This document shows, one piece after another, positions 51,757 through 56,967 of a stretch of DNA of 64,000 nucleotides. Below the pieces are notes generated by a model, which worked only from the letters and a program-made list of their open reading frames with translations, did no database searches and was not told the origin of the DNA. Origin of the DNA: a virus. The stretch is from positions 49,198-113,197 of the IMG/VR virus record IMGVR_UViG_3300042868_005520; one strand, given 5' to 3'. The translations under genes were made by a program, and so were the position numbers. Position 1 is the first letter of the stretch; every line of letters begins with the position of its first letter.

Positions 51757-51763
51757 ATTTTTT

Positions 51764-51834
51764 GGGCGGTGGGCGGACGGCTCCGCAGATCCGCTTATAT
51801 CGGATTCAATCAGGATCGACACCTGAACCGCCTA
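51764..51834 (+). tRNA. atypical tRNA-Ile(UAU)
   Basis: GGGCGGT/ACCGCCT; GCGG/CCGC; ATCCG-CTTATAT-CGGAT; TCAGG-ATCGACA-CCTGA. Confidence 0.75.
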
Positions 51835-51882
51835 TTTTACTACTTCACCCCCGTCTGATTGCCTACTCACCTTGGATACGCT

Positions 51883-53389
51883 ATGAACGAAAACGAATTC
51901 TTAAATTACGAGTCTGATACCGAAACCGATCAAATTGCTTTTATTGACTACGAAGGAATGGGATTGTGGATTTTTGGAATTCATCACGGCGCAAGTGTAA
52001 AGCCTGAATTCGAAACTTCCGAGATCGTGGATCGGGATTCCGATCTAAATAAGTTGGTGGGACGAGCAGTTCGTGATTGGGGTGTTGATCCCCGTGAATT
52101 GTGGGTTTCACCGTGTGCGCGAGAAATTGCTGTTCTCGCATTAACAGGAATGAAAATCTAACGGAGCACTACATTATGAGTACACCCAAGAAGCCCATGC
52201 AGATCACCCTTACGCTGAATATTAGCGACACGGTGTTTCTAAAGATTGCAAAGTTGGCGCACGACACCAACACCACATTCAATCAACAGATTAATCGTAT
52301 TGTGCAGGAAGGTATTTCTCGCGTTGGCGAAACTACACCTGCACCCACTGTGCCTACTACCGTTTCCACTCATACATTTTAACGGTACGCCATGCACGGA
52401 ATCATTTATGGATTTGGAGACGACTACTCACATGGGGGTACGCCATGCACGGGAAAGACGAAGCCGAATTGGAAGCCCTTCGGGACTTGGCGAAAGCCGT
52501 TGCTGAATTACGCGGAGGGTTGCCGCCACTTGAACGGTTCAGGCGTGATCGCGGAGGGGCATTGGAATACTCCCCTCACACCCTCTCTCTATTCCGATCC
52601 GCTTGGAGAAAATTAAATGTCTGCAAAAAATTTCATACAAGCGAGTAATGAATGTCTAGAAAACACGCAGCAGGAAAAGGCGACTCCTATCGCAAGGTTG
52701 ATCGCGTGGCTTGGGAGAGTGGGTGGGAAGCCGCCTTTGGCTCCAAAGGATCTGCCCCCAAGCGGAACAGTAGTAAGCGGAAGAATGGGGGGAAGAGAAA
52801 TCCACCGAAAGATTCTTCTGCGGGTAATGCATAATTTAAGTGAAGAGTACTACGGAGCAGGATGGATTGTGGGGTTAGAACACTACCTGTGGCACATGGC
52901 TCTTCGACAGAGTACTGAAGAAGGACAAATTCTTCTGTACTGCGCGGAAACAAGTGGCGGGTGGTGGATGTGGGATGATGCTCAAGGAGGACCGCTGTTT
53001 GTTCCTCTTGCTGTGTGGCGCACCGCTTACAATGAAAACGAAATGGCTTTACCAATATGACCGCAAAAAATTCAAAAACTCAGTGGTCGTGGCGCAACCG
53101 ATACGGTCAAGAGCGCATCACCACAAAAACAGGTGAGAACACTTTTACTGTTGAAGGCGCAAGTGCGTTTATTCGTTCTGCGTGGGTTGAAAACGAACCA
53201 GGGGTAATTGACTTTGTAGACTTTGAAGGCGGACCATTTATTAGTTTGCGGTCTTCCATGTGGGAATACGGTGTTGCAGGAGTAGACCGTGAGCGGGTTG
53301 TGGTGGGCGTGGCTATGTCGGCACTCCGTGTAGAACTCGGCGAATTGCGGACAAGCGATTGGGTTCGTGTTGAACTCACTGTTGCATAA
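51883..53389 (+). CDS. cluster of small hypothetical ORFs (51883-52161, 52176-52382, 52445-52648, 52652-52834, 52785-53060, 53057-53389)
   Basis: Packed ORFs; GKGDSYRKVD and DFEGGPFI motifs typical of phage proteins; some starts uncertain. Confidence 0.5.
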
Positions 53390-53394
53390 ATACT

Positions 53395-53713
53395 TTTGGT
53401 ATTGTTGATCTCGGAATGAAATCCGTACAAGACGGGGGTTCGAATCCCCCCGACTCCATTAGCCTAATCTAGAGCACCTGTAAAACTCTAGAGACGGCGA
53501 GACAAGTCCTCGCAACAGTGGGGCATTTCCCGAAGTCCTAGGCTTCGGGTCACGGGGTCGAAAGGAATAGATTGGCGAAAAGTAAGGATGAAGGAGATAC
53601 CCGACACGGGTAACAAGTGTCGTAAATAAACCGTTGCAAACCATGATTGCTAACAAACTAGCAATGGCGGCTTAAAGCCGTGGGGACTAGCCCTCCCGCA
53701 TCTGAAAGGGCTG
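53395..53713 (+). ncRNA. ssrA: circularly permuted (two-piece) tmRNA
   Basis: Acceptor piece GGGGG-TTCGAAT-CCCCC-CGACTCCA ends 53458; coding piece starts GGGGTCG at 53554 (G3.U70); pk1 CGACAC/GTGTCG; tag ANKLAMAA* at 53649-53675; outer ends approximate. Confidence 0.88.
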
Positions 53714-53740
53714 AAAGGGGAGTCGCAAGGCTCCCTTTTC
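53714..53740 (+). terminator. terminator
   Basis: AAAGGGGAGTC-GCAA-GGCTCCCTTTT. Confidence 0.8.
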
Positions 53741-53771
53741 CATTTATACATACAATACAAGGAGATCGCGC

Positions 53772-54020
53772 ATGAGTTACCTATTCAACGAAGCAATACC
53801 ATTTGGTGGCACAGGTGGGCAATTTGGCGGCAAGAACAAGGGAGTTCTACTCACCAATACTACGGGTAGTGGAAATACTGTAGACATTTACACTTACAAG
53901 GCTAACGGCACAACACTTTCAAATCGTGTTAGCCTGATGGGCAATGAGTCTAAGATTTTTCAGATTCGTGCATGGGGTATTTCCTGTGGTGCTGGCATCA
54001 CGGGTGCGCTGCTCTCGTAA
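53772..54020 (+). CDS. small G-x-T-rich late protein
   Basis: TACATA upstream, SD AAGGAG. Confidence 0.6.
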   Translation: MSYLFNEAIPFGGTGGQFGGKNKGVLLTNTTGSGNTVDIYTYKANGTTLSNRVSLMGNESKIFQIRAWGISCGAGITGALLS

Positions 54021-54124
54021 TTAAATAATTGAGATGGGGTTGCTCCCTTGACACTCTTGCCACACACGCTATACTGTGTGCATGGCAAAGAGAATTCTGT
54101 ATCACATTAAAGTAGATGCAATAC

Positions 54125-54196
54125 GCGGGTGTCGTATAGCGGCTATTACGCGGGTTTTCCAAACCCGTCACGAGAGTTCGATTCTCTCCTCCCGCA
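54125..54196 (+). tRNA. tRNA-Gly(UCC)
   Basis: CGGGT-TTTCCAA-ACCCG; promoter TTGACA-16-TATACT at 54048-54075. Confidence 0.88.
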
Positions 54197-54198
54197 TT

Positions 54199-54264
54199 GT
54201 AGGTATGATGTAAATGGAAACATTCCACTTCGTGGATATGCAAGTTCGAATCCTGCTACCTACA
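54199..54264 (+). ncRNA. tRNA-like RNA with 3-nt anticodon loop
   Basis: GTAGGTA/TACCTAC acceptor; ATGT/ACAT D-stem; TCCAC-TTC-GTGGA; GCAAG-TTCGAAT-CCTGC. Confidence 0.7.
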
Positions 54265-54306
54265 CCTAATTAAACCGAGTTACATTAGCACTACAGGAAA
54301 CATTAT

Positions 54307-54537
54307 ATGAGCAAGCGAGAACTAAAGCAAAACATGGATTTGTTTATTACAATTAATCCACACCACCCTGATGAGCCAGCACTCCACATCAGGGGAGTGG
54401 ACACTCACGAACAGGTGGATACATATAATGTTGATGAGGTGGAAGACCTTATTGACCGACTTCATGTAGTGCTTGGTGAAATGGTTCACAAGCAGAAAAT
54501 CATGGAGTTAAATAAAACTCCATCGCTTTGGGATTAA
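54307..54537 (+). CDS. hypothetical protein
   Basis: SD AGGA. Confidence 0.6.
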   Translation: MSKRELKQNMDLFITINPHHPDEPALHIRGVDTHEQVDTYNVDEVEDLIDRLHVVLGEMVHKQKIMELNKTPSLWD

Positions 54538-54552
54538 ATATATTCGTCCATC

Positions 54553-54626
54553 GCCTTGGTAACTCAGTTGGTAGTAGTAGCAAACTTTTAATTTGCAAGT
54601 CGTGAGTTCAAATCTCACCCAAGGCA
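54553..54626 (+). tRNA. tRNA-Lys(UUU)
   Basis: GCCTTGG/CCAAGGC; GCAAA-CTTTTAA-TTTGC. Confidence 0.9.
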
Positions 54627-54645
54627 CAATACACAGGAACCGCAC

Positions 54646-55074
54646 ATGGCAAAGAAGACAAAGAAACCCGTCAGCAAACGAACCAAACCTGTGGTTGCCG
54701 CCAAGGCTCCCAAGGCTCCACGCAAGCCCTACACAAAGGCTGTGAAGCCCGTAGAAGCCCCTGTGGTTGTGGTTACCACCGAACCCGCTGTACAGACGCT
54801 GTTACAGGTAGAGCCAACGGACAAGCCTTTAAATATTACATGGAATTATCCTGTTGAATATACCAAAGTCAGCAAAGACGAACCGCTGGTGGACGAGGTA
54901 TTGAATTACAGTACTTCAGTAATTTCCAAGGTGAAATCATTCTTTAATAAGTCTGATTATATTACTGATATTCGTGATGCTGCGTTTGCACATCCCCTGA
55001 TCTTTGGTGTACTGTTTGCCATCGCACTATTTGCATTCTCTGCACTCGTGTACACAGTCATTGGTCTGTATTGA
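54646..55074 (+). CDS. basic N-terminus, C-terminal TM protein
   Basis: K/P/A-rich start, hydrophobic tail. Confidence 0.6.
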   Translation: MAKKTKKPVSKRTKPVVAAKAPKAPRKPYTKAVKPVEAPVVVVTTEPAVQTLLQVEPTDKPLNITWNYPVEYTKVSKDEPLVDEVLNYSTSVISKVKSFFNKSDYITDIRDAAFAHPLIFGVLFAIALFAFSALVYTVIGLY

Positions 55075-55224
55075 AATATTGAGTCAAATCAAATATAGAA
55101 ATATCAGCACTACCCATTGACAGTACATACTAACCGTGTTACAATTAGGACATCGAAACGCAGAATGATGTTGGGCTGACATCCGATGCGTAAACTTTCT
55201 AAAGCCCACTATTGGAGATTTGCA

Positions 55225-55500
55225 ATGGCTACTAAGACTCTCAGCAATCGTCGTCGTGTTCTCAACTTCCTCGCCGCTGGCAACAGCCTGACTTCCGCTC
55301 AGGCTGCTACGAAGTTCGGTGTGAAGAACTTCCGCGCCATGATCAGCGACATTCGTTCGCAGGTCGAAGCGTTTGGTAATTGGGAAGTCGTTAGCACCGT
55401 CAAGAACGGCAAGACGATTTACAGCATGGAAGACACCCATGATGGTGATCGTACCTATGCTTTCAAGCAGGACGGTACGCGTTACATGGTCAATGCCTAA
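55225..55500 (+). CDS. winged-HTH DNA-binding protein
   Basis: VLNFLAAGNSLTSAQAATKFGVKNFRAMISDIR; promoter TTGACA-17-TACAAT at 55117-55145; terminator 55523-55559. Confidence 0.75.
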   Translation: MATKTLSNRRRVLNFLAAGNSLTSAQAATKFGVKNFRAMISDIRSQVEAFGNWEVVSTVKNGKTIYSMEDTHDGDRTYAFKQDGTRYMVNA

Positions 55501-55590
55501 TCATTGACTAATTACTTGCCCTTGGGGTGGCTGCGACCGATTGGCGTAGCCACCCTTTTGGGTTTATATACTCTTTATGAAAGGTTTAGC

Positions 55591-55992
55591 ATGAATAAGT
55601 CATCTGTTTTTGTTGCGTATGCGGCTTTGTGCGTTGCAGGTTTTGCAGGTATTTCTCTGCTTGGAGTTACAGGCAAGAGTGATGATGTTCACGCAATCAC
55701 TGCATTCTTTGCGTTTTATGGATTTCTGTGCACCACTGGTCTTTTCTATGTGATTGCAAAGCAGAAGGCAACCATTGATGCCATGACTGCACGAACCGAC
55801 TCTATGCACGACACAATGTTCACCTTGAGTGAACAAAATAATGAGGACGCGGTTCGATGTGTTGATGAACTTCGTTCGGATATTGAACGCCGAATTGACG
55901 GTTTAGAAAATTTTGAACTGTCTAATATTTGGCGCAGCATTGAGGATTTGCAGAACGCAGATGCTGATGCAAAGTGCGGCTCTAAGAAGTAA
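55591..55992 (+). CDS. two-TM coiled-coil protein
   Basis: Two hydrophobic helices then heptads. Confidence 0.6.
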   Translation: MNKSSVFVAYAALCVAGFAGISLLGVTGKSDDVHAITAFFAFYGFLCTTGLFYVIAKQKATIDAMTARTDSMHDTMFTLSEQNNEDAVRCVDELRSDIERRIDGLENFELSNIWRSIEDLQNADADAKCGSKK

Positions 55993-56003
55993 ATTTTAAT
56001 ATT

Positions 56004-56050
56004 GCGGTGCAGCGTCAGGGCTGTTGGGGGTTCGATTCCCCTTCCACCGT
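56004..56050 (+). ncRNA. mini tRNA-like element
   Basis: GCGGTG/CACCGT stem, CAGC/GCTG hairpin, GGGGG-TTCGATT-CCCCT T-arm. Confidence 0.5.
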
Positions 56051-56130
56051 TTTTGGTATGGATTGCGGCTTGCCTTACAGGGTGTAACTACGCTAAATAG
56101 TGGTTAGACACCCAAAGGAGATCTAGTTAC

Positions 56131-56967
56131 ATGAAAAAGTTCACACAATATCTTGATGCCACGGCACTAAACGAATCGCTCAACAACAAAGAGATCACAG
56201 AAACTCCACTTGTTGAATCAAAACTGTCTCGTGTTTTCCAATATGTGGAAGACGATAAGCGTGACTTTGGAATTGTGAGCGCATCGCGTGGTGCTAATTC
56301 CGCAGAACAGAACAAAGCCAATCACGAAGAACTCAAGAAGGCGATTCGCGCTATGGGTTACGGTTACATTGAACTTCGTGGTGGCTACAAGGGTGACGAA
56401 GGTGTTGTTGAAGAACTCAGCATACTTGTTCCCAACATCAAGAAAAATCAAATCCTTTCGCTTGGACGCAAATTTGGACAGCACTCTGTGATGTACAAGA
56501 ACGATCAGGACTTTTACTATATCGGCACAAACGAAGAAGCAGGTATTGGCAAGGTTCTTATGAGGTTTAAGAAGGGTGAAGGACAAGAGAATCTTGAACT
56601 TGCAAAACACAAGGTTGTAGACTTCTTCTCCCAATTAAAGAAGGGCGCACACTCAGACAAGAAGTTTGTTTTCAATGTGAAAGACGAAACTCCCTCTGAA
56701 GGAGGAGAATCTTCTGCTGATCAACACGCTGCATCCACTCACAAAGCAGGTGATGTGTGGAAAACTTCTAGTGGGTTGTGGGGCGGCAAGAACTCACAGG
56801 GCGAATACGAATACTTTGATGATCAGCCAGCGGCAAAGAAGTACGCGAAAAACACTAAAAAGGGCTTAAAGATTCAAGAACGCGAAGAGTGGAGTTTTTC
56901 AAAGGCTGCATATTTGAGAAGGGGCGAAGACCCCAAGTGGATAACAATTTATGAGGACTTGTCGTAA
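56131..56967 (+). CDS. capsid-targeting-like leader + DUF3293-like domain + WGAKN mini-domain
   Basis: MKKFTQYL; GIVSASR...EELSILV...GRKFGQHSV; TAAATA upstream. Confidence 0.65.
   Translation: MKKFTQYLDATALNESLNNKEITETPLVESKLSRVFQYVEDDKRDFGIVSASRGANSAEQNKANHEELKKAIRAMGYGYIELRGGYKGDEGVVEELSILVPNIKKNQILSLGRKFGQHSVMYKNDQDFYYIGTNEEAGIGKVLMRFKKGEGQENLELAKHKVVDFFSQLKKGAHSDKKFVFNVKDETPSEGGESSADQHAASTHKAGDVWKTSSGLWGGKNSQGEYEYFDDQPAAKKYAKNTKKGLKIQEREEWSFSKAAYLRRGEDPKWITIYEDLS

Follow-up and report, generated by a model that had tools for sequence, protein, structure and literature searches.

The 66-nt element at 54199-54264 of the window, by which the whole 64,000-nt stretch of viral DNA analysed here is meant, derives from a tRNA, does not decode and lies in the tRNA cluster of a phage; its origin is well dated. 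It is homologous to tRNA over its full length, its anticodon arm is truncated, it belongs to a block inserted between tRNA-Gly and the next gene within one narrow clade of T4-like phages, and relatives of it are lacking in the collections searched. With a probability of roughly 0.55 we read it as a recently acquired, presumably neutral relic, which would be transcribed together with tRNA-Gly, would still be processed by RNase P and would act as punctuation between this tRNA and the downstream mRNA.

The window is part of a 113-kb IMG/VR virus record with an estimated completeness of 62%, in which a major capsid protein of T4 type is encoded (Gp23, 443 bits). The phage is T4-like, of freshwater type and from metagenomes, and no close relative was retrieved from GenBank, either by DNA or with one large protein. 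The local order is promoter, tRNA-Gly, element, 30-nt tail, RBS with a 76-aa ORF, tRNA-Lys and a 142-aa ORF, with the following coordinates:

54048-54075, + strand: predicted sigma-70-type promoter (TTGACA, 16 nt, TATACT; 11/12 matches)
54125-54196, + strand: tRNA-Gly(UCC), genuine by ARAGORN and Rfam (56.9 bits)
54197-54198, + strand: UU spacer of 2 nt between tRNA-Gly and the element, read from the sequence
54199-54264, + strand: tRNA-like element, 66 nt (Rfam RF00005 and sequence)
54265-54294, + strand: unstructured 30-nt tail, part of the inserted block, missing together with the element from non-carriers
54295-54537, + strand: RBS (AGGA) and 76-aa ORF, directly downstream of the tail
54553-54627, + strand: tRNA-Lys(UUU) by ARAGORN and Rfam, the next gene of the tRNA/ORF string

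A tRNA homologue without an anticodon loop

The Rfam tRNA model (RF00005) matches the element over its full length (model positions 1-71) with 42 bits versus a gathering score of 29, and with E-values of 2e-7 in the local search and 1.6e-5 when the whole window was compared with all families; the element is a true tRNA homologue, and a chance match is excluded. Its acceptor stem is perfect over 7 bp (54199-54205 pairing with 54257-54263) and is followed by the discriminator A at 54264, directly 3' of which the genome encodes CC. U8 and G9 are present after the acceptor strand, the D-arm pairs over 4 bp and carries A14, A15, G18, G19 and A21 in its 8-nt loop, the variable region of 4 nt ends in U48, and the T-arm has a canonical 7-nt loop with U54-U55-C56-R57-A58, its stem being interrupted by a single A.C mismatch at tRNA positions 52-62. 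Every universal tertiary position (U8-A14, A15-U48, G18G19 with U55C56, U54-A58 and G53-C61) is kept, and 20/21 stem pairs are intact. The initial annotation, which had described a tRNA shape with a 3-nt anticodon loop, a 7-bp acceptor, GG in the D-arm, a canonical T-loop, the A-C mismatch and a start 2 nt after tRNA-Gly, is borne out on these points by the sequence and by Rfam.

In place of the 5-bp anticodon stem and the 7-nt loop with U33 and an anticodon that a decoding tRNA possesses, the element has an anticodon arm of 13 nt versus the usual 17, formed by a 4-bp stem and a UUC triloop. In the Rfam alignment the arm reads as U26, the 4-bp stem, the 3-nt loop and A44, with nine anticodon-loop model positions replaced by 3 nt, so that the 5-bp arm proposed earlier is refined to four stem pairs plus the 26-44 pair, U26-A44, as the fifth. 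Since the 7-nt loop is missing and the arm is 6 nt short, the RNA is, as judged from its sequence, unable to decode or to act as an adaptor. A reading in which a 7-nt loop presenting UUC (Glu) sits on just 2 bp of stem was rejected, as two extra Watson-Crick pairs would close within such a loop and the arm would also be 2-3 bp too short to reach the codon. The element is not called as a tRNA by ARAGORN, and the mascRNA-menRNA family of Rfam does not match it at E-values up to 10.

Thermodynamically, the cloverleaf fold is plausible and marginal. Its computed energy is -14.1 kcal/mol, or -15.3 kcal/mol including the U26-A44 pair, compared with a minimum free energy of -15.6 kcal/mol, and is about half that of five of the ARAGORN-called tRNAs in the window (-20 to -31 kcal/mol). 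In the computed pairing probabilities, acceptor stem and mini-hairpin come close to certainty, the helices of the D- and T-arms reach just 0.2-0.37, and the z-score for folding of the whole sequence is only -1.9. The tail that follows the element has no significant fold (z +1.65).

A 96-nt block restricted to one clade

Besides the window, five IMG/VR contigs from different samples, assembled independently, carry the element with 66/66 nt identical; outside it their divergence from the window is 2.4-5.8% of sites. When tRNA-Gly, which is the constant feature of the locus and present in 20/20 related contigs, was taken as the anchor of a scan, 14 further related contigs from at least five lineages were recovered, and the element is absent in 14/14 of these. 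A conserved short loop in related phages, which the initial annotation had proposed to look for, is therefore found in identical form in the six carriers and is missing from the 14 other relatives. In the latter, RBS and start codon follow 5-10 nt after tRNA-Gly, a spacing that holds also where the downstream gene differs. A decoding tRNA would be expected to be retained across relatives with compensatory stem changes, which is not the distribution of the element.

Carriers and non-carriers share the order of promoter, tRNA-Gly and downstream ORF, with 70-92% identity, and the identity falls to zero exactly across 54199-54294. Element and tail thus form a clean 96-nt indel, the junctions of which are ambiguous by about 2 nt and which has AGG near both ends; the RBS is AGGA in carriers versus AGGAG in non-carriers. 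A cassette swap instead of an insertion was discarded, because the flanks are collinear and conserved. In a maximum-likelihood tree of the downstream ORF the six carriers form one clade (support 100/99) which is nested among non-carriers, and the outgroup is likewise without the block. As the carriers are a single nested clade, one recent gain of the 96-nt block on the carrier branch explains the pattern, the alternative being several identical and precise losses.

The genuine tRNAs that flank the block show what selection looks like at this locus, unlike the element. Between carriers and non-carriers tRNA-Gly has undergone compensatory changes in the T-stem and the acceptor stem, in addition to one U.U mismatch, and tRNA-Lys shows compensatory stem changes among relatives. 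The mismatch, U6.U67, lies in the acceptor stem of the carrier-clade tRNA-Gly, a stem that is perfect in all non-carrier relatives; it arose on the branch that also gained the adjoining insertion. Among carriers and relatives tRNA-Lys has 13 variable sites, most of them compensatory and located in the anticodon and T stems, while the carriers are otherwise 95-97% identical; the window copy has one extra D-loop base, and the turnover is unusually fast for a tRNA.

Descent of the element

The element is not a decayed duplicate of a resident tRNA, as it matches the tRNAs of the phage in the T-loop alone, and a comparison with the tRNAs of the phage itself and of its relatives showed no similarity past this loop. 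No paralogue was found in the genome or in 80 loci, and nearest-neighbour comparison with 113 tRNAs let no isotype stand out. A remnant of an attP site was dismissed too, because both acceptor strands are present.

Pattern searches were equally unproductive. With acceptor and T-loop fixed and any sequence allowed between them, the viral contigs yielded only unrelated tRNAs (Cys, His and Gly), and the stricter pattern, in which bases 8-9 and the discriminator were fixed too, gave zero matches in metagenome or prokaryote genome collections. The 18-mer of the D-arm hits coding sequence by chance and one tRNA-Arg with different stems, the 21-mer of the T-arm is found in carriers alone, and the anticodon stem combined with the T-arm and a free loop retrieves, besides the carriers, Marinitoga proviruses alone. 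A descriptor scan for tRNA-like sequences with an anticodon arm of at most 14 nt in about 770 kb of phage DNA, a small sample, returned only this element, and zero matches in shuffled DNA. In the literature on anticodon-less tRNA mimics of phages nothing direct was found.

The best GenBank match (E 6e-3) is the tRNA-Pro(UGG) of Marinitoga camini viruses 1/2 (KP836355). This tRNA (KP836355.1, 5651-5722), which scores 61.8 bits in Rfam, is unannotated in the GenBank record of Marinitoga camini virus 1. It shares with the element bases 8-9 and 26, four anticodon-stem pairs, the T-loop, nine of the ten T-stem bases and the discriminator A, but differs in the acceptor stem (C1-G72 in tRNA-Pro versus G1-C72 in the element) and comes from a virus of a hydrothermal Thermotogota host. 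Because of this ecological and taxonomic distance, the match most likely represents convergence among very many tRNAs and not a donor. Aligned with it, the element corresponds position for position to a class-I tRNA minus positions 31-39, and its T-stem mismatch corresponds to a G52-to-A change. By enumeration, the UUC loop is not reached from a canonical arm through any single deletion of 6 contiguous nt; one trivial lesion thus does not account for the history, and the element is at least two events away from a functional tRNA.

A tRNA-shaped sequence of 86-87 nt in IMGVR_UViG_3300044477_000015 (L031:2992-3077, - strand) agrees with the element in acceptor stem and T-loop. It is not called by ARAGORN and may represent a tRNA that contains an insert or has an odd anticodon arm.

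Constraint on the element

Among the six carriers no substitution has occurred within the element and a single SNP, at 54283, in the tail. Constraint cannot be derived from this invariance, because 2.55% of sites are variable across 53552-56060 and 39% of the 66-nt windows in that interval are likewise without a variable site. The sequences compared give no sign that the element is kept by selection.

The initial annotation had taken the intact stems to argue against simple decay, an argument that proves weak: by enumeration 4/12 possible 6-nt deletions in a 17-nt anticodon arm spare four stem pairs, and the carriers are too similar for further decay to show. Measured against the divergence of about 0.15 changes per site between carriers and the other lineages, the intact tertiary set and the 20/21 pairs are nevertheless somewhat better than neutral drift since the lineage split predicts.

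Processing and competing explanations

RNase P separates tandem tRNAs in polycistronic transcripts in E. coli. If the element is a relic, a block of 66-nt tRNA body and 30-nt tail would have entered between tRNA-Gly and the next RBS on the stem branch of one narrow clade of this T4-like phage, and the loss of about 6 nt from the anticodon arm and the acquisition of the A.C mismatch in the T-stem could have preceded or followed the insertion. The element would be transcribed together with tRNA-Gly from the predicted promoter, which likely starts the transcript; the surrounding 50-nt stretch is 72-88% identical in non-carrier relatives. RNase P would then cut at 54198/54199, at the 5' end of the element, leaving tRNA-Gly with a 2-nt trailer, and the 3' end would be trimmed after this cut. 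What results would be a small, rather stable tRNA-like by-product that could not reach a codon, with the element as de facto punctuation between tRNA-Gly and the downstream mRNA. The 5' cut is most likely retained, because the half made up of acceptor and T-arm and the elbow are intact and the transcript is shared with tRNA-Gly, and the conserved promoter and tRNA-like spacing support both co-transcription and processing. With U at position -1 and a short U-rich spacer, the element resembles the other tandem tRNAs of the genome, which are separated by similar U-rich spacers (Glu-Tyr 4 nt, Tyr-Thr 3 nt); these features, like the acceptor/T-arm half and the elbow, agree with those on which RNase P of bacteria relies.

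The lesions other than the short loop, namely the A.C mismatch, the weak D and T helices and a cloverleaf energy of half the usual, speak for a relic. The intact tertiary set, the 20/21 pairs and the non-trivial lesion history speak against it. Compact T4-like genomes, moreover, tend towards shedding useless DNA, and the region holds early and counter-defence-type genes, including an S-adenosylmethionine (SAM)-lyase-like protein.

Alternatively, the block could be a processing module maintained by selection, in which RNase P and 3' trimming release tRNA-Gly and provide the mRNA with a defined, unstructured leader of 30 nt. The position of the element between a tRNA and an mRNA of one transcription unit, the -1 U and 2-nt spacer as in other tandem tRNAs and a tail that leaves the RBS free fit such a role, as does the intactness of the acceptor/T-arm half and elbow, the parts read by RNase P and RNase Z (PMC11693755). 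We consider this unlikely all the same: the 14 related contigs manage without the block, with the RBS 5-10 nt after tRNA-Gly, evidence of constraint on the element is missing, and the RBS of the carriers is, if anything, the weaker one (AGGA versus AGGAG).

A function as non-decoding mimic, either as a CCA-tailed decoy for tRNA-binding defence factors or as an off-ribosome donor charged independently of the anticodon, would make use of the intact core of the L-shape and of the genomic CC behind the discriminator, and the neighbourhood of small early genes and a SAM-lyase-like gene of anti-restriction type would suit it. Furthermore, A73, A14, A15-U48, G18G19-U55C56 and U54-A58, which make up the identity set of E. 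coli LeuRS (PMC6614811), are all present. Most of these bases are universal in tRNAs, however, and confer low specificity, the loop that anticodon nucleases require is missing, and conservation is limited to one shallow clade without sibling elements in the collections searched. Transferase, synthetase, ligase or CCA-enzyme genes were found neither nearby nor elsewhere in the record, which is an estimated 62% complete. EF-Tu and several enzymes contact the T-stem helix of tRNA, and it is in this helix that the mismatch of the element sits. A functional mimic is thus improbable, and its most specific form, a deliberate anticodon-less and CCA-tailed RNA undergoing LeuRS-type charging for use off the ribosome or acting as a sponge for host factors that grip elbow and acceptor, is slightly more so. 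Of the non-decoding tRNA mimic proposed earlier, the non-decoding part stands, while function as a mimic finds no support: the element is a clade-restricted recent insertion, offers no variation in which selection could be recognised, and has no relatives elsewhere in the collections searched and no tRNA-related genes as neighbours.

The block might also be a stand-alone copy of a small mobile tRNA-shaped insert, akin to the 'enigmatic introns' of Lak phages. That a small unit shaped like a tRNA is cleanly present or absent within a tRNA cluster of phages recalls these tRNA-like introns, which differ in the same manner between relatives (Devoto et al., PMC6784885). The element lies beside a tRNA gene and not inside it, though, the block includes 30 nt that are not tRNA, each genome has one copy and a second site is absent from all collections searched, and no homing endonuclease was found around the element and no RNA ligase in the record of 62% estimated completeness; mobility of this kind therefore appears doubtful, to a degree comparable with a function as mimic. 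That the short loop is an artefact of assembly or sequencing, for instance a loop that was collapsed, is hardly credible, since identical copies in five other independent assemblies, which differ elsewhere, exclude assembly error. The finding that the initial annotation had foreseen as refuting it, a normal 7-nt loop in relatives through recent deletion or assembly error, did not occur; the other relatives carry nothing at this site.

Comparison with known tRNA-like RNAs

The preferred reading as a relic places the element next to the tRNA pseudogenes and 'undetermined' tRNA-like genes of phages, with which it shares tRNA homology, a lesion of the anticodon arm that abolishes decoding, a narrow distribution and a location in a tRNA string; restriction to a shallow clade and origin in a lineage-specific event likewise agree with this class. 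Compared with such pseudogenes it is unusually tidy, as the other stems and the tertiary bases are kept and a perfect mini-hairpin is left, and it derives from the insertion of a foreign unit and not from the decay of a resident tRNA gene.

In shape the closest parallel is provided by mascRNA and menRNA, the 3' modules of MALAT1 and MEN-beta, which undergo cleavage by RNase P and RNase Z and receive a CCA tail but no amino acid, and the processing of which defines the end of the neighbouring RNA (PMC11693755). Like the element, they keep acceptor, T-arm and elbow in normal form, and a compact loop takes the position of the anticodon loop. On the other hand, mascRNA is eukaryotic, its D-arm is reduced, the stem equivalent to the anticodon stem is longer and linker residues are absent, and processing of the element is predicted; of a role in defining the end of a neighbour, only the position between tRNA-Gly and mRNA is seen. 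The vtRNAs (TMERs) of murine gammaherpesvirus 68 are virus-encoded tRNA-like RNAs as well, not aminoacylated and co-transcribed with and processed from functional RNAs downstream (PMC4337559). They belong to an animal virus, are transcribed by Pol III, occur in eight conserved copies and have a demonstrated phenotype, in contrast to the one copy in a bacterial virus described here from sequence. Both serve as processing modules, the gammaherpesvirus vtRNAs for their microRNAs and mascRNA for MALAT1 (PMC4337559, PMC11693755).

In Lak megaphages the intron itself is tRNA-like, and relatives differ in whether they have it (Devoto et al. 2019, PMC6784885). The element likewise is a small tRNA-shaped unit with clean presence or absence in phage tRNA loci, but Lak introns reside inside the anticodon region of a tRNA gene, whereas the element stands alone 2 nt downstream of one and has a non-tRNA tail. 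Several copies or sites, as expected of a mobile family, are not seen, the element being confined to a single site.

On the evidence, the locus is a dated example of gain and loss in a phage tRNA cluster, in which a conserved tRNA-mRNA operon cleanly gained 96 nt, and the element could be a natural substrate for testing steps of tRNA maturation on an RNA without an anticodon loop. It also warns that a tidy cloverleaf alone is no proof of function. Should it prove to be a selected mimic, it would represent a rare tRNA look-alike of a bacterial virus with a non-decoding use, relevant to the arms race around tRNA-targeting defence, and a bacterial-virus counterpart of the gammaherpesvirus vtRNAs.

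Other genes and RNAs of the region

Pfam and PHROG searches gave no match for the 76-aa ORF and allowed no function to be assigned to the neighbouring ORFs except for the SAM-lyase-like protein, a 278-aa product of 56131-56967 (+ strand) with an S-adenosylmethionine-lyase-like domain (PF23780, E 1.3e-10), which is a candidate for an anti-restriction function within the region of tRNAs and small ORFs. RNA ligase, RtcB and CCA-adding enzyme were not found in the record (estimated 62% complete), nor was a homing endonuclease in gene-family searches around the element.

A second odd tRNA-like RNA of the phage may be encoded at 51763-51835 (+ strand), where ARAGORN calls a tRNA-Ile(UAU) with a strong cloverleaf (-30.7 kcal/mol) that is conserved in relatives. 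It has a non-canonical T-loop and a D-loop of 4 nt, and gives zero Rfam tRNA match, even at E 10 on a 300-nt slice. At 53398-53675 (+ strand; extended 53351-53741) the window encodes a circularly permuted, two-piece tmRNA (Rfam tmRNA_permuted, 71.6 bits versus a cut-off of 47), which is conserved in relatives, in whose copies ARAGORN reads the tag ANKLAMAA.
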